Below, piece after piece: positions 1-11,813 of a stretch of DNA of 11,813 bases. The notes below the pieces were generated by a model. It was not told the origin of the DNA and ran no database searches. It saw nothing but the letters and a program-made list of their open reading frames with translations. This DNA comes from a virus (Duplodnaviria; Heunggongvirae; Uroviricota; Caudoviricetes), in IMG/VR virus record IMGVR_UViG_2663763428_000005. One strand, 5' to 3'. Every line of letters begins with the position of its first letter. Position 1 is the stretch's first letter. The position numbers and the translations under genes are program-made.

Positions 1-110
1 AGCTAGAAGTTTCAAATGATTAGATATTTAACATTACCCATATTCAATCAAAAAAATAACGCCCTGCCATTTCAAGTAAAAATTACCAATATTTTCAGAT
101 AGTAGTGGCG

Positions 111-1088
111 TTAATTTTCTTCAGTTTTTTTATTTTTTCTTGCAGGAAGTTTAGGCTTATATGCATTAACAAAAAGTTGATATGAATCCTGTAATGATAA
201 TCCGGGAAGGGTATCGTTTTTGGCACTAAATATTGCATAATACTTTTCGTATCGACTTATATCTTTTTCAAACACCCATGTCCATTCAGAATCATATAGT
301 CTTTCCCCTCCTTTTTCCTTATTTTTGTTCTCAACTGTACGATTAATTATAAATTTGAAAACGGTATTATTCAAAGTTCTAATAAAATTCTCAACAATAA
401 ATGCGATTTGCTCGAGATCATCATTATTGAGTATTATCGGTTTTTCTAAGTGCTTCATATGTTCAGCCAATCCTAGTCGGATTGCATTTTTCGAACCCAA
501 CTTACCAAATCGATGAACACAACAATGCCTTAACTCGCAAACTTTCATGAATTCGCTTGAGCATTTCATCATTTCGATTGGTCGTTGTCCTTTCATTCCA
601 ATAATGTCCTTTAATGTTTCAAAAACATTATAAGGGCTTGCCAATGAAAAGTCCTCAAGTAAAGCTTCTGGTAATAACTCCTTTTTATGGTGTTGTGCCG
701 CTGCATAACTAACGGCCTTATCAGAAACTATAGACTGTATATATTCATCATGATTAATTAGATTTCTGATAAGAGCTCGCAAATAACTTTCGGCTGCAGA
801 CACATAACCTAATAACAACAGATGGCTTAATGTGTTTGAAATATCACCAGATCTTAACAAGTGAAGTTGCTTTGTATTAGCTATAAAAAGATCTAACGGG
901 GATTCCTTGCTATCAACAGGTAACTCATTAAATTTTTTGTGTGTCTCAAACGAAAAAACTAGAGCTGGATTACTACATAGTTCAAAAAACTCTCTTCCAT
1001 CTAAGTTATCATGGGTTGCAGTGACAACTGAGGACGCCACATTATGATGAGTGGTCTCTTCATAATCCTCTTTTGATTCTAGTTCCAT
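111..1088 (-). CDS. Hypothetical protein, third gene of the MTase-ATPase operon; possible HEPN-like or other nuclease effector (speculative)
   Basis: Long minus-strand ORF (track 111..1214, which opens on a TTG). In-frame ATGs at 1181, 1148 and 1088; 1088 (MELESKEDYEE...) is chosen because it has a purine-rich stretch upstream and a hydrophilic N-terminus, but the start is uncertain. The ORF overlaps or abuts the upstream ATPase stop at 1159. Contains 'ELRHCCVHRFGK', which fits the HEPN Rx4-6H signature; this short motif can occur by chance. Stop TAA at 111-113. Confidence 0.55.
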   Translation of the reverse strand: MELESKEDYEETTHHNVASSVVTATHDNLDGREFFELCSNPALVFSFETHKKFNELPVDSKESPLDLFIANTKQLHLLRSGDISNTLSHLLLLGYVSAAESYLRALIRNLINHDEYIQSIVSDKAVSYAAAQHHKKELLPEALLEDFSLASPYNVFETLKDIIGMKGQRPIEMMKCSSEFMKVCELRHCCVHRFGKLGSKNAIRLGLAEHMKHLEKPIILNNDDLEQIAFIVENFIRTLNNTVFKFIINRTVENKNKEKGGERLYDSEWTWVFEKDISRYEKYYAIFSAKNDTLPGLSLQDSYQLFVNAYKPKLPARKNKKTEEN

Positions 1089-1158
1089 TTTCCCGACTCT
1101 TTTTAAATTAAACTTTTCAGATAAGAAAGACACGATTGACAAGTACATGCCATCAAAA

Positions 1159-2865
1159 TTAAGACAAAAACTCTTCAACATGTAATAACACTTTGTCCAT
1201 AATTTTATTGGCAATTTTGGGTCCTATTCTGTGAATTTTTCTTAACTCACTCCCAGGGTCTTGTAAAGACAATACATCTCCTATAGTTTTTACTTTTTCC
1301 AGCCCAGATAGTTTTTGCATTTGCCAAGATGTTAGATGTGGTACTTTTGACAGTGGAATAGACATGCACTGATTATAGGCCGACTCATCAATCAATTGAT
1401 TCCCACAATGATGGCAAAATTTTTGATTGTCAGTCAATCGCGGAGTCTTGCAGTTATTGCATGGAGGTAAAGTTAGTTTAAGTCTCGCAAGTTGCTCAGC
1501 ATTGAATAATGATGAAATGTTTCTTCTGACAGGATGCTTAGCATTCTTTCTTAGTATTTTTTGAATAATCTGAGAAGGAGAAAAACCTCTACTTCCTTCG
1601 TTAAACACTCTTTCCTTTATTAATAAAGCATAATGAGGTATATATCTTTCATAAGTACGCCCATCACCATGAGAAATATCAGGAAGATTATAAAAAAGCC
1701 CTGTTTCAATTAATAGCTTAGTGAGTCGAGAAAAATAAACATTATCATTTTTCTCTATACCGATTATGACTTGTTTCTCTTCTTTATATTGGGAGTTACT
1801 TTCCTTGAGTAATTCGACTACTTTTAATAAAAGTGATTCACCTAATGAAACAATGTCAAACAATCGAGGTAGCTTATCTTTTAGTGAACTGTATTCGCTG
1901 AGTCTAAGCTCAACATACCTTTCAATTATTTTATTAAATTTTTGCTGAGTTGTCTGACTTAAAGTTGTTTGATAATCTCTTAACATCATCAAAAAAGAAC
2001 GTGGAATACCAAATGCTGAGAATTTAAATAACTCTTTCAAGTCATCCGGAATGCCATCATACCCAGGAAACCTTGCCTGCGCTATAGCATCCATCACTGA
2101 GGAATAATTAGGGTGCTGTACCGAAATCCAAGCATCAATTGTTTCAGCATCATGAGCAACATGAAACCTTGGGCCATATTCGGTTGTTCCAGGATAAACC
2201 GATGCCTTTAAAGCTATTTTTGAGGTTTTTAGACTACGTACAATATCAAAAAACTCGTAAAGATATTCAGGAGTTAAGCTTATTGCTGCATCGTCTAATA
2301 AAATAATGACTCTTTTACGTTCAAGCCAATCACATAGTGAACTCAACGAGGATATAACAGAAGAAACACTGATCAATTGAACAATGTTTTCTTGTTCTAA
2401 TGATGGCGAAAGACCCTGCTCAAGCCTTACGATTAAATTAATTAGGAACTCTTTATCCGCTATGAGTATCGTTGACAAATCAAGATATTCAGAATCTTCA
2501 ATATCGCAAGCAATTTCATAAGCAGAGAGTAGTATCTTTGCTAATACCCATTTATGAAAGAGATCAATTGCATTTGGTTTATTTTTTAAAAGCGGCTCTA
2601 ACTTAAAATATTTATTAAAAGAAACATAGAGTGGTAATGGTGCGTTATCATCGTTTTTACATTCAACCCAAGCATAACGCATCAAATGTGTTTTACCACA
2701 TCCCCTAGGACCAACTATAAGTTTGATGCCTGGGGATATAAGAGCATTATGTATAATATCGAAAAACTCTCCAGTTCTGATAGTATTATTTTTTATCGTA
2801 TCCTCATCAATATAATCAGCTCGTTCCTCGATAAGAAAATTACTATCTAATTCCACATCAGTCAT
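1159..2865 (-). CDS. P-loop NTPase (AAA+/ORC-Cdc6-like) with C-terminal CxxC...CxxC zinc ribbon and helix-hairpin-helix-like tail
   Basis: 568-aa ORF. Walker A 'GPRGCGKTH' near the N-terminus, Walker B 'VIILLDDA', C-terminal 'CNNCKTPRLTDNQKFCHHCG' (four-Cys zinc ribbon), then a Gly-rich 'RIGPKIANKI' segment typical of HhH DNA-binding motifs. ATG at 2865 overlaps the MTase stop (2858-2860) by 8 nt, indicating translational coupling. Confidence 0.85.
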   Translation of the reverse strand: MTDVELDSNFLIEERADYIDEDTIKNNTIRTGEFFDIIHNALISPGIKLIVGPRGCGKTHLMRYAWVECKNDDNAPLPLYVSFNKYFKLEPLLKNKPNAIDLFHKWVLAKILLSAYEIACDIEDSEYLDLSTILIADKEFLINLIVRLEQGLSPSLEQENIVQLISVSSVISSLSSLCDWLERKRVIILLDDAAISLTPEYLYEFFDIVRSLKTSKIALKASVYPGTTEYGPRFHVAHDAETIDAWISVQHPNYSSVMDAIAQARFPGYDGIPDDLKELFKFSAFGIPRSFLMMLRDYQTTLSQTTQQKFNKIIERYVELRLSEYSSLKDKLPRLFDIVSLGESLLLKVVELLKESNSQYKEEKQVIIGIEKNDNVYFSRLTKLLIETGLFYNLPDISHGDGRTYERYIPHYALLIKERVFNEGSRGFSPSQIIQKILRKNAKHPVRRNISSLFNAEQLARLKLTLPPCNNCKTPRLTDNQKFCHHCGNQLIDESAYNQCMSIPLSKVPHLTSWQMQKLSGLEKVKTIGDVLSLQDPGSELRKIHRIGPKIANKIMDKVLLHVEEFLS

Positions 2866-4066
2866 GTTTAATCCTTACAAGATGTATTTTTTTTAATGCA
2901 TCCATTGTAATATGTTGTGCGGCTACACCACTACTCGCTCGAGATAATTCCTCTTGCCCATCTTGAGAACAAAGAAAATCAAATAGTTTTTTCTTATCTC
3001 CACCAGAGGCTCGTATCAGAAAAATACAGTCACTGATATAAGAATAGCCGCTCTCAACAAACAATATTTTTTTATGAAAATTTCGCCCAACTCTTGCTAT
3101 TAATATATCACCAGGCTTAGCAATGACATCTAATTTTGATGGCTTCAATTCTTCTACAGAGTTGCAGTGGAATTTAATGTACTTTTCATCACCACTAAAT
3201 TTTGTCGTATGAAAAACATGTTCCGTAATTTCCTTTGAATTAAACCTACCTCTAAAAATTGAAATATTTTTAAGCATCCCTATTGTGCTAAACCCTTTAC
3301 CTTCATTTTTATTATAATGATAAGAGTAGTCCATTCTCTCAACCGCATCTTCTTTTCTAATTAAAACAGAAGGCGACAATTCCCCATCTTTAGTTATACA
3401 ATGTAATTGTATTTTATGATGAGGCATAATTTTTTTATTAAAAATTAAAATATGTGTTTTAGCCTCTGTCCTTTTGAAGATATTCCTAGGCAATTCAATG
3501 ACTTTTGTAATTGAATGTTCATTCAATAAATATCGTCTTAAACCTATAAACTTTCTTGCTGTAAATATACCATCAGGTAAAATTATTCCAGCCTCACCGC
3601 CCTTTTTAAGAAACCTGATGACTTGAGATATAAATATTATCTCTGCTGGGACATATTTTGAGACAGATATATATTTATCTGCGCCAATCTCACTAATGAT
3701 TTTAAAATAATCATCCCTCCATTCAGGGAGAGTGAATGGAGGATTACATACTGCAACATCAAAATTTCCTTGATGTCGGGCAAGCATTTCAGGAAATGAA
3801 TGAACAAGGGCATCTGTTACAATATGAGTAAGATTATCACATACTTTTTTTGACATCCGAGATTCTATATCCAAAGAATATGCTTCTGCATTCTTCCATC
3901 GGTCTAAAGCAGCATAGGTTAAGCTCCCCTCACCAGAAGCTAAATCAATAATATTATTGACTTTTTCAGCTTTCATCTGAGAAACCAATAATGCACTTAT
4001 GGATTCTTTTGTATAGTATCTTCCGAGACTATCTCGTTGTGTGAATGGCATATAGTTACTGTTCAT
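2858..4066 (-). CDS. N6-adenine DNA methyltransferase (gamma-class, TaqI/Eco57I-like catalytic domain plus C-terminal putative target-recognition domain)
   Basis: 402-aa ORF. 'GRYYT' N-terminal motif (as in HsdM/PglX-type MTases), SAM-binding motif I 'DLASGEGS', catalytic motif IV 'NPPF' ('VAVCNPPFTLPEW') about 65 residues later. The roughly 250-aa C-terminal remainder is long enough for a target-recognition domain. First gene of a 3-gene coupled operon. Confidence 0.9.
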   Translation of the reverse strand: MNSNYMPFTQRDSLGRYYTKESISALLVSQMKAEKVNNIIDLASGEGSLTYAALDRWKNAEAYSLDIESRMSKKVCDNLTHIVTDALVHSFPEMLARHQGNFDVAVCNPPFTLPEWRDDYFKIISEIGADKYISVSKYVPAEIIFISQVIRFLKKGGEAGIILPDGIFTARKFIGLRRYLLNEHSITKVIELPRNIFKRTEAKTHILIFNKKIMPHHKIQLHCITKDGELSPSVLIRKEDAVERMDYSYHYNKNEGKGFSTIGMLKNISIFRGRFNSKEITEHVFHTTKFSGDEKYIKFHCNSVEELKPSKLDVIAKPGDILIARVGRNFHKKILFVESGYSYISDCIFLIRASGGDKKKLFDFLCSQDGQEELSRASSGVAAQHITMDALKKIHLVRIKHD

Positions 4067-4307
4067 TTTTTATACTCATCTTAAGTACGCTACCGCCCTA
4101 GGCGTTACGGCTACCCAAGAACCAACACAATCATGTAATCTATTGATATTTATAAACTTATCTTCAAATCTTTCAGCCCTAGAACCTAAAAAAGATAGAA
4201 GTGTAGGTAACAAAGGGCGATCGGATATAGGGCTAATGTTTAAACTTAAGTATCAAAATATACGGTTTTAGGTCATTTTCCTAATCAATCCTATCATCAC
4301 GTCAAAT

Positions 4308-5516
4308 CTACTTTGTAGCGTTCACCAGCAAAGAAATACATGAATTATGATTAGCGTTTATATAGTCCGCATACCACTGCATCATCTCCCTACGTCCTTC
4401 CAAATACAACGCATGGTTATACGTCCCACGAATCGCATTTTTATCAACGTGAGCCAGCTGGGTTTCAATCCACGCTGTATTGAAACCTTCCTCATGCAAA
4501 ATCGTACTCATCGTGTGACGGAAACCATGCCCCGTTACCCTCCCCGTATATCCAATCCGCTTAAAAACCTGATTAATACTCGCTTCACTCATCGTCTTGC
4601 GGGGATCATTACGTCCCGGGAACACCAGTGGATATTGCCCTGACATCACTTTGAGTTGCTGTACGATTTCCAGCGCTTGGGTAGAGAGGGGGACAAGGTG
4701 AGGCCGTTTCATCTTCATACGCTCGGCAGGTATCTCCCACACCGCTTTTTCAAGATCAAACTCACTCCAGAAAGCACCTCGGAGTTCGCCAGTGCGAACT
4801 CCCGTGAGGATCAGCAGACGTGCCGCAAGAACAACTAACGGGCTTCCTGTGTAGCCTGCGAGAGCTTTAAAAAAGTCTGGTAACTCCTCAACAGTAAGGA
4901 AGGGATAATGCTTCGATTCATGCCCTGACATCGCGCTGGTAAGATCCGCTGCAGGATTGTATTCCGCACGACCGGTTACGATGGCGTAACGAAAGACTTC
5001 GCTGCAACGCTGGCGAACCTTCTTGGCCTTCTCTGTCGCGCCACGGCTTTCAATTCGACGCAGCACATTAAGCAGAACCAGCGGTTTGATTTCATTCACC
5101 GGTTGTTGGCCAATATAGGGAAAAATATCTTTATTAAAGGCTTCGATAATGTCCGAGGCATAACCTTCTGACCATCGGCTCACCTTCGTTCCATGCCATT
5201 CAAGTGCCACAGCCTGAAACGTATTATTTAGCTGCACATCTCGAACCAGCTTTTCTTCTTTCTTGGCAAGCGATGGATCGATACCTTCGGCAAGCTTTTT
5301 CTTGGCGTCGTCACGCAGTGCCCTCGCTTGTGCAAGGGACACTGCCGGATAGACACCAAAGGCCATACGCTTCTCTTTTCCATTGAAGCGATATTTCATC
5401 CGCCAGTATCTGGAACCAGAGGGAACAACCTCAAGATACAAACCAGCACCATCTGCCAGCTTATAGGCTTTCTCTCTGGGTTTAGCTGCGTCTACCTGTC
5501 GCGCATTAAGTTTCAT
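4308..5516 (-). CDS. int: Tyrosine site-specific recombinase, P4-type (tRNA-targeting) integrase
   Basis: N-terminus 'MKLNARQVDAAKPREKAYKLADGAGLYLEV...' is the canonical P4-like integrase arm-binding region. C-terminal catalytic residues are in 'HGFRHTMST' and '...GTYNHALYLEGRREMMQWYADYI' (R...HxxR...Y). ATG at 5516 has an AGGGAG Shine-Dalgarno upstream; the ORF track extends to 5555 with alternative upstream starts. Lies 164 bp downstream of a tRNA 3'-end repeat in the same orientation. Confidence 0.92.
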   Translation of the reverse strand: MKLNARQVDAAKPREKAYKLADGAGLYLEVVPSGSRYWRMKYRFNGKEKRMAFGVYPAVSLAQARALRDDAKKKLAEGIDPSLAKKEEKLVRDVQLNNTFQAVALEWHGTKVSRWSEGYASDIIEAFNKDIFPYIGQQPVNEIKPLVLLNVLRRIESRGATEKAKKVRQRCSEVFRYAIVTGRAEYNPAADLTSAMSGHESKHYPFLTVEELPDFFKALAGYTGSPLVVLAARLLILTGVRTGELRGAFWSEFDLEKAVWEIPAERMKMKRPHLVPLSTQALEIVQQLKVMSGQYPLVFPGRNDPRKTMSEASINQVFKRIGYTGRVTGHGFRHTMSTILHEEGFNTAWIETQLAHVDKNAIRGTYNHALYLEGRREMMQWYADYINANHNSCISLLVNATK

Positions 5517-5574
5517 TGGGGGCATCTCCCTAGACCGAACACAAAATGCCCCCACTTATGCCCCCAACTGCGAC

Positions 5575-5658
5575 TTGATTTCGGTTGAGTCTAGTTGATA
5601 ACAGGAGATAAGATACGGGCCAGAAACCGCAGTATACGAGCTTTTAGTTGATTTCGGT
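5575..5658. repeat. Direct repeats between tRNA repeat and int start; putative integrase arm-type or regulatory sites
   Basis: Exact 11-mer 'TTGATTTCGGT' at 5575-5585 and 5648-5658; 'AGTTGAT' at 5593-5599 and 5646-5652. Located in the int promoter/att region. Confidence 0.4.
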
Positions 5659-5679
5659 AGACTTGGGAAGAGTTTGAAA

Positions 5680-5725
5680 TGGTGCCGATAATAGGAGTCG
5701 AACCTACGACCTTCGCATTACGAAT
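5680..5725 (-). repeat. Partial tRNA-Thr(CGU) 3' end (about 46 nt, anticodon loop to CCA); attachment-site (att) repeat, not an intact tRNA
   Basis: Reverse complement of 5680-5725 reads 'ATTCGTAATGCGAAGGTCGTAGGTTCGACTCCTATTATCGGCACCA', matching the 3' part of enterobacterial tRNA-Thr(CGU) (thrW-type) as remembered. The sequence beyond 5725 does not supply the required 5' acceptor strand 'GCCGATA' or a D-arm, so the tRNA is truncated. Confidence 0.8.
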
Positions 5726-6421
5726 TATAAGAATCCGCTTCTAATTCAAAGTATTACCCCATCAACACTGTGCTCACACGTCCCACCACATCAAAACATG
5801 TAAAGCCTTGCAAGCCATTGTGAGGCCTTATGTGTCTCAGTTTTGTCCCACCTTGTATTATGACTTGCATAGCCAATGAAGATAAACGTGACGACAAACA
5901 GCGCAGCAGTCTTCTTTTCTTTCACACTTTCCCCAATCAGCATACATACTTTCTACCATAACTGTAGTGAATGTCTGTTATGAGCGAGCAAAAGAGATTC
6001 AATTACCGGGGAATTACTCCGACATAAGCTCTCCCAGAAACACCGGAACAGCGATTCGCATATTCTCTTCTATACTTTCAGTCTGACCGGCTGGAGATTT
6101 CATAGCAAGAAAATGGATGAGCCAAGACCTATGCGGGAAAGAGGCTGAGGAAATAATTGCCGATAGCACTGTGCCCGACGAAAAGTTAATCTGGCACGCA
6201 ATGACGCGCGTCCTTGGGGCATCAGGAATCAGAGAGCCAACTTAACAACCCATTATATATTATTTAACCGGACTGTTACATGTACAAAGTTCAATGATTA
6301 GTGATTCTGTGACGCCACATACAACCTAAGCCCCTGATATAAAACCAGTCTATGCAACACCTAAAAATCATATATGATAGGGTGATAAGTCAACGCGCAG
6401 TATAAAAATTAAGCTAAAAAA

Positions 6422-6472
6422 TGCTTTCAGCATAGTGAATCTATTTCACACTACATAATTAAGGATGAAAAA
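6422..6472 (+). promoter_or_regulatory. Putative promoter/operator region of the ParA-like operon
   Basis: AT-rich leader with two small inverted repeats ('TGCT-TTC-AGCA' 6422-6432; 'GTGAA-TCTAT-TTCAC' 6435-6449), a -10-like 'CATAAT' (6454-6459) and an 'AAGGATG' Shine-Dalgarno ahead of the ATG at 6473. Confidence 0.3.
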
Positions 6473-7318
6473 ATGACTGCACCAGTAATTAGTTTTATCA
6501 ATATGAAAGGTGGGGTTGGTAAAACAACTTTATGCGTTGGGATTGCTGAGTTTTTAGCCAACCATATGGGGCGCAAGGTTCTAGTTATCGATATTGATCC
6601 TCAATTTAATGCCACTCAGTCCTTAATGGGGCATTATGATCGAGTAGAAGAATATATGACTGCCCTTCGCCCTAATAATCAAACCATTCGAAAGATTTTT
6701 GAGCTTCCAAATTCATTAATGGAAGATGAAAAGAAAGTGACACCAGAACAGGTCATTACTAAAGTTTCAGACAATCTTGATATTATCTTAGGTGATATAA
6801 ACATTATCTTTGATACTAACCAAGAGGGTATTAGAATAAAAATGTTGCGTAAATTCATCACCGAAAATGACTTAAAAGAAAGTTACGACTATATCTTTAT
6901 CGATAGCCCCCCAACAATCTCATTATTTACAGATACCGCACTCCTTGCTTCTGATTATTATCTTACTCCGGTTAAAATTGATCACTACTCGGTGCTTGGA
7001 GCAAGCAGTTTAAATAGCGTTATAAGAAATATGCGCACACATCATGAGAAAGAAATCAAGCAAGTCGGTTACATTTATACAAACACTGATGCTGAAATGA
7101 CCAATAAAACAAGGGAAATTAAAGAACAATTCGAAAACCATACTCAATTTACAAATTTTTATTTCTTTGAAAATCAATTAACCTACGTGCGTGATTTAAT
7201 GGTAGGTTATCAAGGAAATATTCCTTCTTGTTATTCAAAGTCACGCCAAGATATAGAAAAGATCTGTAACGAATTTATTAACAGAGTGGCTCACTTGGAA
7301 GGTAACACAAATGAATAA
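6473..7318 (+). CDS. ParA/MinD-family (deviant Walker A) ATPase
   Basis: 281-aa ORF. Deviant Walker A 'NMKGGVGKTT', 'VIDIDPQ' motif, Walker B-like 'IFIDSPP'. Good Shine-Dalgarno. Stop overlaps the next gene's start (ATGAATAA). Confidence 0.88.
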   Translation: MTAPVISFINMKGGVGKTTLCVGIAEFLANHMGRKVLVIDIDPQFNATQSLMGHYDRVEEYMTALRPNNQTIRKIFELPNSLMEDEKKVTPEQVITKVSDNLDIILGDINIIFDTNQEGIRIKMLRKFITENDLKESYDYIFIDSPPTISLFTDTALLASDYYLTPVKIDHYSVLGASSLNSVIRNMRTHHEKEIKQVGYIYTNTDAEMTNKTREIKEQFENHTQFTNFYFFENQLTYVRDLMVGYQGNIPSCYSKSRQDIEKICNEFINRVAHLEGNTNE

Positions 7319-7709
7319 ACAATTAATTAAAGCGCTCAATAAAGCTAATAATATGCCCATGACCAAAGAAAACTTCTTAGGCTTGGTAATTATGTTGATT
7401 CTTTCAAAAGAGGTTTTTAGATCAAATTTTGATGTTAGTAAATTTATTAACAAAACCTTCAAAATATCTTTTTTGAATTATGCTGTACGGTCAAGAACTT
7501 TGATGTGCGCTAAAATTTGCAGACATATTAATGAATTAAGTGAGAATGACATAAAGATGGCTTATACGCATTTCTTAAACAACATTAACACATTAGACAT
7601 TATTTTTAATGATGCAAATAAAACAAGCCAAAAACCCACATCTAAAAGCAAGCATGCTATAAGGAATTTAAATATTTGGATTAATGCAAATAAAAAGGAA
7701 GAAGAATAA
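7311..7709 (+). CDS. Hypothetical protein (132 aa), coupled to ParA-like ATPase
   Basis: ATG at 7311 preceded by a 'GGAAGG' Shine-Dalgarno and overlapping the ParA stop; Lys/Asn-rich basic C-terminus. No recognisable domain by eye. Its stop overlaps the next start (TAATG). Confidence 0.6.
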   Translation: MNKQLIKALNKANNMPMTKENFLGLVIMLILSKEVFRSNFDVSKFINKTFKISFLNYAVRSRTLMCAKICRHINELSENDIKMAYTHFLNNINTLDIIFNDANKTSQKPTSKSKHAIRNLNIWINANKKEEE

Positions 7710-8374
7710 TGCTCACGCAGGATCCCTTCAACATTGGAAGAGATGTAAATTATTTTAGAGCGGAGGTGCAAAAGCACCTCAGAACCACTGATGAAATAAA
7801 CAAATCAGTATCAATATTTAGGCAAATAAGTCTTTGTAATACAATTTTAAGTCACAATCCTAATCTAAATCACTCTTCTTATATAAAAGGTTTTATATAT
7901 GATACCTTAAACTCCTTAATTGCCATTATAAAAAAAAGAGAACGGTATCTCCAACTGAACTTCCGCTCAATGGTGGAGCATGTGGCCAGAATAAGCCTCA
8001 ATAAGAACTACAATGGTGGGGATTTTGACCAAACTGTACGTCGTAGAGACTTTGACTTCTTAAAAGCCCAACAAGTCGATGAAGGCTGGTCTTATTTACA
8101 TAATGTCTATATCAACGCCTGTTATTATGTTCACTCCTCCCCCCAAGCGAACCTAAATGTTACATCAACATTTATATCACTTATGGAGGGAGATTGTAAT
8201 TCAACACAGCATAAAATGGTGAAAAAACTTCATGAGGTAGTATCGGCGCTGATGAGAATCATTATAAAGTATTATCATCAGCATATCTCAAACATTTTCT
8301 TTAGAAACAAAAAGGATTTAGAGAAAATAATGGGAAAAAGCCTTTATTCATATTATACCAGCTTAGACAATTAA
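7709..8374 (+). CDS. Hypothetical protein (221 aa), third gene of the ParA-like operon
   Basis: ATG at 7709 preceded by an 'AAGGAAG' Shine-Dalgarno and overlapping the previous stop (TAATG). Contains 'NFRSMVEHVAR' (an Rx4H-type motif of unknown significance). No recognisable domain. Confidence 0.65.
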   Translation: MLTQDPFNIGRDVNYFRAEVQKHLRTTDEINKSVSIFRQISLCNTILSHNPNLNHSSYIKGFIYDTLNSLIAIIKKRERYLQLNFRSMVEHVARISLNKNYNGGDFDQTVRRRDFDFLKAQQVDEGWSYLHNVYINACYYVHSSPQANLNVTSTFISLMEGDCNSTQHKMVKKLHEVVSALMRIIIKYYHQHISNIFFRNKKDLEKIMGKSLYSYYTSLDN

Positions 8375-8439
8375 TTCTCTCATATTCATTGCGTAGAGCA
8401 TAAATATCTATCTAACCACCTAAAATGCCAGAAAATCTA

Positions 8440-9170
8440 GTTGTATACCGGTGCGAAAATATCTCGCGTTTCATCTGCCACTGCTGCTGAATGCCCTGCC
8501 CAGCGAAACAGAGTGTTTCCTTCCCGTCTTTTGCATTGAGGTGCTCCAGCACGCTCATTAACTTTTCGCTCCCAGGACCCAGCGCGTTATCGTCGAATAG
8601 GTTAGGGCATGCTCTGACTGAAGAAGTCCCCCAGCATTACCCCGGCTTTCTGATATCGGTGTCCGTCTTTCCATATTGCATCCAGACTCCCCGTTGCTAC
8701 TGCAATGATATCCCGACTGTCCTGTGTCGGGATGAGCAGCTTCACCGACGCGCTGTTACAGTAGTACGACTCGTTCAACGCAAAGGGTATCGTGTAAAAC
8801 CGATGATGACACTGCCGGCAATCAGCACTGACGTCAGCAAACGTGAGAAAGAACAGATAAGCCGAACGATTTAGGAAATGTTTGAAGAGACTGATATGTG
8901 GATGGTTTCAGTTTAAACGCCTTGAACCGTCATATTACCTAAGTACAATCCGCTGTGACTGGCAATCATTCAATACTTGCACTATCAAAAGTGCATCAGC
9001 CAACCGCAGCACGTCTTGCATACGACCTGTCTGCGGTTTCAATCACCTCTCACCACCAGTCCCATCAATAATAATTAAACAGCGCCTAAACAAAATAAAT
9101 AACAACAAGTCAACAACCTCGACAGGATGCCGATGGGATGATGAAGAGATAAGAAAGAATAACTAGTAAA
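8440..9170. other. GC-richer segment without a convincing gene; possible degraded gene remnant
   Basis: Composition differs from the flanking AT-rich genes. The plus-strand ORFs here (8491..8874, 8882..9166) have odd Cys/Ser/Pro/Arg-rich compositions. On the minus strand, a 48-codon frame runs from an internal Met to a stop near 8420 (MSVLEHLNAKDGKETLCFAGQGIQQQWQMKREIFSHRYTTRFSGILGG); an upstream stop was not located. Confidence 0.25.
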
Positions 9171-9304
9171 GCCCTAAAACGTCAGCGTTCAGACGCGTTT
9201 TTTACTTAACCGGTAACAAATACGTTGTATCATAGCAACATAAAATGATTGTTCTAAATCAGATTAACTCCTCACTTTTGTACAATGTCGCTTACAGGTA
9301 TACC

Positions 9305-11194
9305 ATGAAATCCGAGACGCTAACTGTCCAACAACTTTTTCAAGACCGCCGACAATACTGTGTTCCATTCTATCAACGTGCCTATGTATGGACTCAGCGA
9401 AACCAATGGTCAGCTCTACTGGAGGATATCCTAGAGAAAGCACAATCCCGGCTCTCGGGTACAAAACCAACTCCCCATTTCCTTGGTGCAGTGGTACTGG
9501 AACCTCAACCAAAAAAAGGATTATTCGGTGTAGATTCCATACATATTATTGATGGTCAGCAACGATTGACCACTCTTCAATATGTTCTGGCATCCATCCG
9601 ATTAGCATTACGTGCGACAGATCTTTCCAACTTAGAGCCTCTCATTTCGTCTTGCCTGAAAAACTCAAACGAAGACACAATGCGAAATAAAGAAGTAGAG
9701 CGCTTCAAACTGTGGCCAACTTTTCGGGATCAAACTCATTTTATTCAAAGTTTTAATGTTGAAAATATTGACGATATCCGGAATGTATTCTCTGATAGTT
9801 TCACGCAGCATGGTACGTTGCGTAAGCATTTTAATCACCCGCCATCACTAGAAGCATTATGTTTTTTTACTGAAGCCTTTATAAAGTGGATTAAAATAGA
9901 AAATCACTCACCACGAGAAAATGCTGTAGCATTAATTGAGGCTGTCTTGACGGATCTGAAACTAGTAAGCATATTTCTCGAGGCTGAAGATGACGCTCAA
10001 ATAATTTTTGAAACATTAAATGGCAGAGGTGCGGAACTTCATGCCACAGATCTTATTCGCAATTATATTTTTATGTGCGCTGAACATGAAAATATTAATG
10101 CTGTTGAATTATATGAGAATGAGTGGAAGATCTTTGAAGATACGTACTGGTCAGAAAGACAACGTCGTGGTCGTATTAATAAACCACGCATGGAGTGGCT
10201 AGTGCATGCAACATTGCAATCAGAAAGGCAACGTGAAATCGATCTGTCTCGTCTTTACAATGAGTATCGTGATTATGTAAGTAAGGACTTGCCTTCACAA
10301 CGAGCAGATCTGCAAGTAAAGCGCCTCAAACAATATGCATCACAATATAAAGAATTGGTTGGTGGTTTTGGCACAACCCCCATCTCACACTTTGGACATC
10401 GCATCGCAGCCTATGATGTGACGACACTTTATCCGCTTGCTTTGTTCATTTCGATAGCTAACATCGCCGATGATGAGAAAGCAGCCATGTATAATGATCT
10501 TGTCTCCTACGTAGTACGAAGAGCCGTATGTGGCCTGACGCCAAAGAATTACAACAATGTATTTATGAATGTATTGCGGCACTTGTCTAAAACAGAAATT
10601 TCCAGTGTTGAGTTACGTAATATCCTCAATAGCTTAAATGGCGAAGCCTCACGTTGGCCTGGGGACTCAGAATTTCTCAACGCTTGCATCAATGCTCCAC
10701 TTTATCCTGGCAGGCTCGACGCACCGAAAATGCGCTCAATGTTAACGGAACTTGAAAGAGAACTTTGTCGCCAAGTGAAGACAGAGAAGCCTGATGTTCC
10801 AAATCTTTCTAACCTCGATATCGATCATCTTATGCCTCAAAGTTGGTATTCCTGTTGGCCTCTCGAAAATGGTCATATAGTGACAAATTCAGATGCTACG
10901 GTATTGAACCAAATTGTTCTGTCTGGAACCGATCTTACCCCAGAACAGCTACTGGTAAGGAAACGGCAACAAGCGATAGCTACGTTGGGAAATCTAACTT
11001 TGCTTAACCTTAGCGTAAACCGTTCTGTTCAGAATGCTGTATTTCTGAAAAAACGTGATGCTCTCATCGTCCACACCAATCTACGACTGAACATTCCACT
11101 TATAGTTAAGGATAAATGGGATGAGGATGAAATCCTGGAGCGGGGTAAAAAGTTGGGGGAAATTGCATTGAAAGTATGGCCAAAACACGATTAA
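9305..11194 (+). CDS. GmrSD-like DUF262/DUF1524 protein; putative type IV (modification-dependent) restriction endonuclease or related defence nuclease
   Basis: N-terminal DUF262/ParB-like signatures 'VPFYQRAYVW' and 'IIDGQQRLTTL'. C-terminal DUF1524/His-Me-finger-like 'DIDHLMPQSW' and 'GNLTLLNLSVN'. Start uncertain: ATG at 9245 (longest ORF, no Shine-Dalgarno) or ATG at 9305 (AGG about 9 nt upstream, motif spacing typical for the family). Confidence 0.85.
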   Translation: MKSETLTVQQLFQDRRQYCVPFYQRAYVWTQRNQWSALLEDILEKAQSRLSGTKPTPHFLGAVVLEPQPKKGLFGVDSIHIIDGQQRLTTLQYVLASIRLALRATDLSNLEPLISSCLKNSNEDTMRNKEVERFKLWPTFRDQTHFIQSFNVENIDDIRNVFSDSFTQHGTLRKHFNHPPSLEALCFFTEAFIKWIKIENHSPRENAVALIEAVLTDLKLVSIFLEAEDDAQIIFETLNGRGAELHATDLIRNYIFMCAEHENINAVELYENEWKIFEDTYWSERQRRGRINKPRMEWLVHATLQSERQREIDLSRLYNEYRDYVSKDLPSQRADLQVKRLKQYASQYKELVGGFGTTPISHFGHRIAAYDVTTLYPLALFISIANIADDEKAAMYNDLVSYVVRRAVCGLTPKNYNNVFMNVLRHLSKTEISSVELRNILNSLNGEASRWPGDSEFLNACINAPLYPGRLDAPKMRSMLTELERELCRQVKTEKPDVPNLSNLDIDHLMPQSWYSCWPLENGHIVTNSDATVLNQIVLSGTDLTPEQLLVRKRQQAIATLGNLTLLNLSVNRSVQNAVFLKKRDALIVHTNLRLNIPLIVKDKWDEDEILERGKKLGEIALKVWPKHD

Positions 11195-11215
11195 TGCAAT
11201 TAATAAAATGATTAT

Positions 11216-11241
11216 AGCGGCCTTACATTAGTAAGGCCGCT
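11216..11241 (+). terminator. Stem-loop, probable transcription terminator downstream of the GmrSD-like gene
   Basis: Perfect 11-bp inverted repeat 'AGCGGCCTTAC-ATTA-GTAAGGCCGCT' 22 nt after the stop codon. There is no strong T-tract on the plus strand; the minus-strand flank is T-rich, so it could act bidirectionally. Confidence 0.5.
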
Positions 11242-11446
11242 ACTCACTATTAAATCCTTTAATTTGCAACAAGAACAGCAGTGTCAGCCCTAGGTTTCGG
11301 ACTTTGTACCGCTTATCTTGTCTTCAAAATCAGCTCGCATCCTGCACAGTTCAGCGCATTACGTTGTAGATCTGTGTTCTGGTCATTTGTTGATACGCGA
11401 ACATAGCCAATAAGCATGATAGCTCCTCCTGACAAAAACAGGAACG

Positions 11447-11687
11447 ATGCCATTTGCGCGCTATTTCTGCATTTTCATAAACGTTCAATTGGGAGAAGCG
11501 GCAAAACGGGATGTCGGAACCGGTAATAATCAACTCCCGGACATGTCCGCATTTGGTATGTCGCGAAACGGACAAACTGCCTGGGATATTCTCCCAAATG
11601 GTATGATTCGACAGGTTGGTACTGTGACACTGACGCCTGTTGGTAATTTCAACGCAATTACTCTTGGTGGAGTGCTGTACTACACCC
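11447..11687 (+). pseudogene. ORF truncated by IS insertion (unknown product)
   Basis: The plus-strand ORF 11447..11716 runs straight into the IS terminal repeat; its last 9 codons (TLNRPGNPGD) are encoded by IS sequence, so the native 3' end is missing. Product not recognised. Confidence 0.3.
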
Positions 11688-11813
11688 TGAACCGCCCCGG
11701 GAATCCTGGAGACTAAACTTCCTGAGAAAGAGGTAAACAGGATGACTAAAAATACTCGTTTTTCCCCCGAAGTCCGTCAACGGGCAGTCCGTATGGTTCT
11801 GGAAAGTCAGAGC
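11688..11813 (+). mobile_element. Left end of an IS3-family insertion sequence (IS629/IS1203/IS3411-like), continuing beyond the window
   Basis: Terminal sequence 'TGAACCGCCCCGGGAATCCTGGAGACTAAACTTCCTGAGAAAGAGGTAAACAGG' followed by the ATG of orfA; this matches the left inverted repeat and leader of IS629-group elements as remembered. Confidence 0.75.
11742..11813 (+). CDS. IS3-family transposase OrfA (N-terminal HTH part), partial: runs off the window end
   Basis: ATG at 11742 with a 'GAGAAAGAGG' Shine-Dalgarno. Translation 'MTKNTRFSPEVRQRAVRMVLESQS' is the characteristic N-terminus of IS629/IS1203-type OrfA. Not in the ORF track because no stop lies within the window. Confidence 0.8.
   Translation, partial: MTKNTRFSPEVRQRAVRMVLESQS

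Follow-up and report, generated by a model that had tools for sequence, protein, structure and literature searches.

The 11,813-nucleotide stretch of DNA filed as IMG/VR virus record IMGVR_UViG_2663763428_000005 (the window, by which the whole stretch is meant throughout) carries four genes on its minus strand, encoding an integrase, a DNA methylase, an ATPase and the protein under study here, gene 3, whose open reading frame (ORF) spans positions 111-1214. Re-examination of this ORF agreed with the original prediction that its longest version (367 codons) opens at a TTG at 1214 inside the ATPase gene (1159-2865), with three in-frame ATGs following at 1181, 1148 and 1088; TTG 1178, TTG 1142 and GTG 1133 are in frame as well. 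In RefSeq the protein is listed as WP_000920172.1, a 'hypothetical protein' for which the Prokaryotic Genome Annotation Pipeline (PGAP) set the start at ATG 1181.

Gene 3 follows the methylase and ATPase genes on the same strand. The methylase gene (2858-4066, minus strand) encodes an N6-adenine DNA methyltransferase of 402 amino acids (aa) with its own C-terminal target-recognition region (Pfam N6_Mtase, 9.8e-23; PADLOC MTase_II, 1.2e-237). Its NPPF motif lies at 3734-3745 and its S-adenosylmethionine-binding loop, DLASGEG, at 3926-3946, and residues 256-400 resemble the target-recognition domain of an S subunit (NCBIfam MAD5, 6.4e-5). The methylase stop and the ATPase start overlap by 8 nucleotides (nt). 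The ATPase gene (1159-2865, minus strand) encodes a 568-aa AAA+ protein of the ORC/Cdc6-STAND type, with Walker A at 2689-2712 and Walker B at 2284-2301. In its structural model, with a pLDDT (predicted local distance difference test) of 87.8, the AAA+ domain is accompanied by a helical lid and followed by a winged-helix-like region, a Zn ribbon (1405-1461) and a tail of the helix-hairpin-helix type. Both Walker motifs and the four cysteines of the Zn ribbon are invariant, and the protein is similar to the switch- or loader-type ATPases that occur in immune systems. A match of the ATPase to NCBIfam DS41, at 15 bits where the cut-off is 370, was discarded as noise from the P-loop. Searches with Pfam, PADLOC and NCBIfam found no DNase domain of the PD-(D/E)xK, HNH, GIY-YIG or PLD type in the three proteins. 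Likewise, no nuclease-like alpha/beta domain is seen in the gene 3 or the ATPase model, and a PD-(D/E)xK or other DNase fold is supported by neither.

The original prediction had pointed to an Rx4H motif in gene 3, RHCCVH, that resembles the signature of HEPN ribonucleases (RNases), and had cautioned that the motif is short enough to occur by chance. RHCCVH is indeed present, at 513-530 on the minus strand (aa 229-234 of the 367-codon ORF). The caution holds for the bare pattern, at least one R....H being found in 40% of 20,000 composition-matched shuffles of the gene 3 protein (mean 0.49 per protein), but not for RHCCVH itself. A database search recovered 171 homologues of gene 3, mostly 285-300 aa in length. 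In alignments of 34 and of 73 homologues (38-42% mean column identity), R229 and H234, the predicted catalytic Arg and His, and H230, the polar residue next to the Arg, are invariant, and no part of the protein is better conserved than the block CELRHCCVHRFGKLG. A second motif, ESYLR (777-791, minus strand), corresponds to the Ex3R hallmark of HEPN domains, and its E142 and R146 are invariant among the homologues (ESYxR). When 1.8 billion representative proteins were searched with a profile, 426 family members emerged; an alignment of 45 of the more divergent members (14% mean column identity) has as its sole invariant columns Met1, the Glu of Ex3R, the Arg and the final His of the Rx4H motif, and one Asn. 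This Asn (N282 of the 367-aa ORF; 369-371, minus strand), located in the long helix after the motif, is invariant in the alignments of 34, 73 and 45 members. Since the Arg, the adjacent His and the final His are invariant in 73 relatives, RHCCVH goes beyond chance and is, as judged from the alignments, a real conserved motif.

The conserved core of gene 3 starts at FFELC (window 975-989). Another Rx4H pattern, RNLINH (750-767, minus strand; aa 150-155), was considered as a second active site and rejected as a chance match: R150 is conserved and H155 is not, position 155 being occupied by I, C, H, V, N or S among homologues. Variation at the ends of the protein was also seen in the family. In one 522-aa member (P0038), an N-terminal partial N6-methylase region is fused to the HEPN core, an arrangement that may be an artefact of assembly or gene calling, and several members among P0235 and P0242-P0245 (460-500 aa) carry about 230 extra C-terminal residues of unassigned function.

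In catalytic HEPN domains, helix 3 ends in an Rx4-6H motif whose Arg is directly followed by a polar residue (N, D or H); further marks are an upstream Ex3[KR] motif and an insert between helices 2 and 3 (PMC3710099). All of the sequence hallmarks listed in that work are present and invariant in the gene 3 family. The AlphaFold2 (AF2) model of the 325-aa form of gene 3, which starts at ATG 1088, was built from 73 sequences and is all-helical, with a pLDDT of 88.2 and a pTM (predicted template modelling score) of 0.82. In this model, E100-x3-R104 (325-aa numbering; E142-x3-R146 of the ORF) is part of a long helix spanning residues 85-113, and short helices at 115-163 form an insert ahead of the Rx4H motif. 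RHCCVH (187-192) ends the helix 171-192; a loop comes next, and residues 222-253 form another long helix. The predicted fold has the all-alpha, four-helix up-down core of HEPN domains with the insert between helices 2 and 3. Its Rx4H motif, with the polar His after the Arg, ends helix 3, and the upstream acidic residue of Ex3[KR] is the Glu that is invariant even in the 45 divergent members. The original prediction had named as contrary evidence a structure lacking a four-helix fold around the motif or a confident match to another fold such as PD-(D/E)xK; the model has a four-helix fold there and lends no support to PD-(D/E)xK or another DNase fold. The reading of RHCCVH as a HEPN-type motif is likewise supported by the polar His after the Arg, the upstream Ex3R and the position at a helix end, all of which are conserved.

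Profile matches of the family are weak, and all of them point to HEPN and nowhere else. Nine of the 45 distant members match Pfam HEPN_RiboL-PSP (PF18735) over nearly the whole profile (best E=1.7e-5), and single distant members match HEPN_Apea and HEPN_Cthe2314. Among the 73 members, PADLOC matches were obtained to RTasHEPN (10), Csm6 (2) and CARF_HEPN (1). The UniRef entry of one homologue reads 'RiboL-PSP-HEPN domain-containing'. Several results weigh against a HEPN assignment. The window gene 3 protein itself matches no Pfam or NCBIfam family, the HEPN profile matches for which bit scores are listed reach 13-19 bits, below the Pfam gathering score of 28.4, and the family profile has no match among PDB sequences at E<=10. 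A Foldseek search of the model against the PDB gave nothing significant (best E=0.32), HEPN chains being found only among the insignificant matches. With no match for the window protein and 13-19 bits for its relatives against the PF18735 gathering threshold of 28.4 bits, the gene 3 family is, on its profile scores, related to PF18735 but not a curated member of it. Taken together, conservation, predicted fold and gene context support the HEPN reading, and gene 3 very probably encodes a HEPN-fold protein with an intact catalytic signature, which would make it a predicted metal-independent endoribonuclease of the kind whose active site forms across a dimer. WP_000920172.1 can be relabelled a HEPN-domain protein, with its start codon flagged as uncertain.

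The original prediction held the true N-terminus to be unclear, and the ambiguity is real, although it can be narrowed to two of the candidate starts. TTG 1214 was rejected because, in three related loci (L055, L056 and L068), in-frame stops sever its equivalent from the rest of the gene, and ATG 1148 because it is ATT in a 99%-identical Kluyvera copy and missing from other relatives. ATG 1088 and ATG 1181 remain. ATG 1088 opens the minimal coding sequence (111-1088, minus strand; 325 aa), which encodes the predicted HEPN fold and a C-terminal helical extension. A Shine-Dalgarno-like AAGAG lies 8 nt upstream of it (1097-1101, minus strand) in a conserved DNA block. In an alignment of the window with Kluyvera L002, L055 and L056, the ATPase stop is followed by about 45 nt of near-random sequence and then by the conserved block AATTTaAaAAGAGTyG..AATG; L068 has AAGGG at the position of AAGAG. 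Owing to in-frame stops, the equivalent of ATG 1088 is the sole start left in L003 and in Pectobacterium L069, indicating that the 325-aa form is sufficient in these relatives.

ATG 1181 would add a 31-codon N-terminal extension (1089-1181, minus strand) and would overlap the ATPase gene by 23 nt. It is the start chosen by PGAP and is conserved, but it falls inside two constrained codons, CAT GTT (H-V), that encode the ATPase C-terminus. The 70 nt that separate the ATPase stop from ATG 1088 were initially regarded as simply non-coding, an explanation that was given up: despite strong DNA divergence, the gene 3 frame is free of stops there in six of eight enterobacterial-clade lineages (window, L055, L056, L067, L068 and L059, over the equivalent of 1089-1158). 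The probability of a stop-free frame in shuffles is 0.07-0.13 each for the window, L055, L056 and Serratia L059, in which the other two frames contain 1-7 stops, and codon-position identity across the stretch follows the order 2>1>3. In more than 40 loci of other species, the HEPN gene starts -4 to +18 nt from the ATPase stop, often with an overlapping ATGA, the conserved core following at 2-55 nt; in the enterobacterial clade, 145-170 nt separate the ATPase stop from the core FFELC. On balance we lean slightly towards translation from ATG 1088 (325 aa). A longer isoform produced instead or in addition, from ATG 1181 or by re-initiation near the ATPase stop, has a somewhat smaller though considerable chance of being made. 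The extra residues would lie upstream of a low-confidence tail (pLDDT 40-59, residues 1-30 of the 325-aa model) and would leave the HEPN core untouched.

Loci encoding a gene 3 relative were sought in one genome per species. Homologues of both the methylase and the ATPase were present in 51 of 53 loci; of the two exceptions, one is truncated by a contig end and the other is degraded. The ATPase is fragmentary in a few of the loci. The usual order is methylase-ATPase-HEPN, and four loci have the order ATPase-HEPN-methylase. The hosts of this three-gene cassette belong to Gamma-, Beta-, Alpha- and Deltaproteobacteria, Myxococcota, Bacteroidota and Acidobacteriota, and the cassette is located on an integrase island, on integrative conjugative elements (in Serratia, conjugative transfer regions) and on plasmids. 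A tblastn search against phage genomes gave no match, and one against plasmids returned four records only. The trio is absent from PADLOC-DB 2.0 (2023) and has no NCBIfam name. No paper on it was found in full-text literature or, by the three RefSeq accessions, in the DefensePredictor supplements, although a recent naming is possible.

All loci carry a PF02384 methylase, with the exception of Vibrio splendidus L065/L066 (3442-7690), where the ATPase-HEPN pair is accompanied by a beta-class PF01555 (N6_N4_Mtase) methylase on the opposite strand that replaces PF02384. This replacement suggests that the ATPase-HEPN pair needs DNA methylation as such rather than one particular enzyme. In another locus, L060 (6802-7765), found in a Serratia-type conjugative element on a Joint Genome Institute (JGI) metagenome contig, the gene 3 homologue is split into ORFs of 96 and 181 aa beside an intact methylase and ATPase, an apparent inactivation of a putative toxin.

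The window derives from an Escherichia coli chromosomal island. Among 5,426 complete E. coli genomes, 148 contain its bases 1-4300 at >=99% identity, in every case on the chromosome and in one copy per genome. The integrase gene (4308-5555, minus strand) encodes a P4-type tyrosine integrase of the operon-bearing island, as identified by Pfam integrase domains. In E. coli strain DA33133 (L001) this gene adjoins a tRNA-Thr gene upstream of proA, whereas in the window (5556-11813) the integrase is followed by a ParA cassette, GmrSD, prophage remnants and insertion sequence (IS) elements, an arrangement that also occurs in 46 E. coli genomes. No tRNA gene was found in the window. The differing integrase flank and the lack of a tRNA gene in the window point to a rearranged or composite island. 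In two genomes, IS903B is inserted between the methylase and integrase genes. A scan of positions 1-4400 for promoters and terminators gave counts equal to the shuffle expectation.

Beyond the integrase, the plus strand of the window carries a GmrSD/DUF262-type type IV (modification-dependent) restriction enzyme (9245-11194; PADLOC mREase_IV over its full length, Pfam GmrSD_N and GmrSD_C), which makes the window a small defence island. A candidate second three-gene operon (6473-8374, plus strand) has overlapping stops and starts and consists of a gene for a ParA-family ATPase (6473-7318), a middle ORF of 132 aa (7311-7709) and a last ORF of 221 aa (7709-8374). The 221-aa protein has no match in Pfam, PADLOC or NCBIfam. 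It contains RSMVEH at aa 86-91, of which R86, S87, E90 and H91 are invariant among 18 enterobacterial homologues (49-90% identity).

Based on these data, we propose, at a probability of about 0.65, that gene 3 encodes a catalytically competent HEPN endoribonuclease acting as the effector of a conserved, mobile three-gene cassette. The linkage of the three genes is strict, and the trio contains no recognisable DNase domain. We infer RNase activity, a direction of signalling, a trigger, abortive infection and a role in defence, in the following scheme. The N6-adenine methylase would mark host DNA at a specific sequence, and the ORC/Cdc6-STAND-type ATPase may serve as an ATP-driven DNA sensor or switch, its C-terminal modules contacting the DNA. 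On encountering unmodified (foreign) DNA, or after disturbance of the methylase/ATPase complex by a phage, the ATPase would release the HEPN protein or assemble it into an active dimer, which would then cut RNA, so that the infected cell stops growing. In its most specific form, this scheme amounts to a minimal restriction-modification-like system with an RNase as the 'restriction' arm, in which the ATPase reads the methylation state, alone or with the recognition domain of the methylase, and switches on the HEPN protein; this form is put forward tentatively, with somewhat less than an even chance of being correct.

One locus weighs against this explanation. On a plasmid of Limimaricola variabilis (L070, 4186-8297), the ATPase and HEPN genes lie beside a gene for a 442-aa protein without a Pfam methylase match, and indeed without any Pfam match or obvious methylase motif. 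The HEPN protein of this variant (274 aa) shares 28% identity with gene 3 and matches PF18735 at E=0.0012, its ATPase is ORC-CDC6-like with a Zn ribbon, and the locus is flanked by HipA and ParDE toxin-antitoxin genes. In this branch, the third partner may not be a methylase.

The main rival to sensing of unmethylated DNA is a guard function like that of PrrC, in which the HEPN protein is kept silent on the methylase/ATPase complex and fires upon a phage anti-restriction attack, serving as a back-up suicide module. Many HEPN families, including PrrC/RloC, are embedded in restriction-modification operons (PMC3710099), reappraisals of BREX and Dnd read HEPN domains in methylation systems as last-resort co-effectors (PMC12839542, PMC10853773), and strict three-gene linkage suits a guard equally well. 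However, the PrrC- and BREX-type cases also hold a primary DNase, whereas no second nuclease was found in the cassette, so that a guard would here be protecting a system without a restriction arm; we regard this explanation as unlikely. Still less probable is that phage defence is not the selected function at all and that the cassette is an addiction or epigenetic module, in which loss of the methylase unleashes an ATPase/HEPN toxin, or a methylase works with regulatory partners. Its residence on a P4-type integrase island, in the conjugative transfer regions of Serratia and on plasmids would suit addiction, as would the toxin-antitoxin genes adjoining it in Pectobacterium and Limimaricola, but in the window the cassette sits among defence genes (the GmrSD type IV enzyme and the ParA-linked cassette). 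Addiction and defence are, moreover, commonly combined in restriction-modification systems, so this alternative does not exclude the preferred explanation, and an addiction role is compatible with either a sensor or a guard. Finally, it is very improbable that gene 3 has a HEPN-like fold and is no RNase, acting instead as a non-catalytic adaptor or regulator of the ATPase or methylase or on another substrate: several HEPN families are non-catalytic substrate-binding domains (PMC3710099) and the structural matches are moderate, with nothing significant from Foldseek, but non-catalytic HEPN families have lost the Rx4-6H motif (PMC3710099), and in the very divergent members of the gene 3 family the sole invariant residues besides Met1 are E, R, H and N, an active-site signature.

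If the proposed scheme is correct, the cassette would represent a simple three-protein route from 'DNA lacks my methyl mark' to RNA destruction and growth arrest without DNA cleavage. Epigenetic discrimination of self from non-self would be coupled directly to abortive infection without a DNase, in a system that is widespread across phyla and unnamed. A similar link is suspected for the HEPN add-ons of BREX, Dnd and Hma, where it is hard to study because the systems are large and DNases are present; the cassette is small, widespread and directly testable. It occurs in more than 50 other species, and many of the 148 E. coli carriers are clinical isolates, so the cassette may affect phage therapy and plasmid uptake in carrier strains.

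Compared with known families and systems, gene 3 is closest to the HEPN Abi2/Swt1 assemblage, the nearest Pfam family being PF18735 HEPN_RiboL-PSP. The helical bundle, the Rx4H motif ending helix 3, the polar residue and Ex3R are common to both, and distant relatives of gene 3 give full-length, sub-threshold matches to the Pfam profile. PF18735 domains are found in fusion with an L-PSP endoribonuclease or in ParB operons (PMC3710099), whereas no L-PSP or ParB domain was seen in the gene 3 loci. Gene 3 also differs by an extra conserved C-terminal region (WTW...D...YY..F) and by its obligate ATPase and methylase neighbours. With the anticodon nucleases PrrC/RloC, a family listed in PMC3710099 and linked to type I restriction-modification (EcoprrI), the cassette shares linkage to methylation genes and, as predictions for the cassette, a HEPN RNase, its control by a P-loop NTPase and an abortive-type response. 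However, in PrrC/RloC an ABC ATPase is fused N-terminally to the HEPN domain, while gene 3 has no NTPase domain and its ATPase is encoded by a separate ORC/Cdc6-STAND-type gene. PrrC/RloC are partnered by a full hsdMSR system that brings its own DNase, while the cassette has one methylase with its own recognition domain and no restriction subunit. Classical restriction-modification systems of types I, II and III include a DNA endonuclease subunit or domain, and none was recognised in the cassette.

BREX and MANTIS likewise pair a methylase with an ORC-clade ATPase, and the HEPN add-ons of BREX, Dnd and Hma-DUF499 systems work similarly to the effector proposed here. Unlike BREX, Hma and MANTIS/Gao_RL, the cassette lacks PglZ, BrxA/B, BrxL and a helicase-nuclease; neither PglZ nor a helicase was found in the window or in related loci. 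BrxC and DUF499 are more than twice as large as its ATPase, which has a Zn ribbon and a helix-hairpin-helix tail. HEPN is encoded in the cassette as a protein of its own, and it alone is a candidate nuclease. The matches of the ATPase to PADLOC HEC-02A and mad8 cover only about 30 P-loop residues, and those to similar models are likewise confined to P-loop segments. For MADS, the methylation-associated defence system, the mad1-8 set is not present, the methylase scores 58.6 bits against the NCBIfam MAD2 cut-off of 720, and the mad8 match of the ATPase has E=0.0036 over 20 residues. The trio thus falls outside the named systems, because it is without an ABC-HEPN fusion, hsdR/S, PglZ and a helicase-nuclease and because its MADS and HEC matches are at the P-loop level only. 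Sensors of the STAND or 'archaeal ATPase' (PF01637) type, such as Avs and RdrA of RADAR, have no methylase and respond to phage proteins or other cues, whereas the ATPase of the cassette would sense the modification state of DNA.

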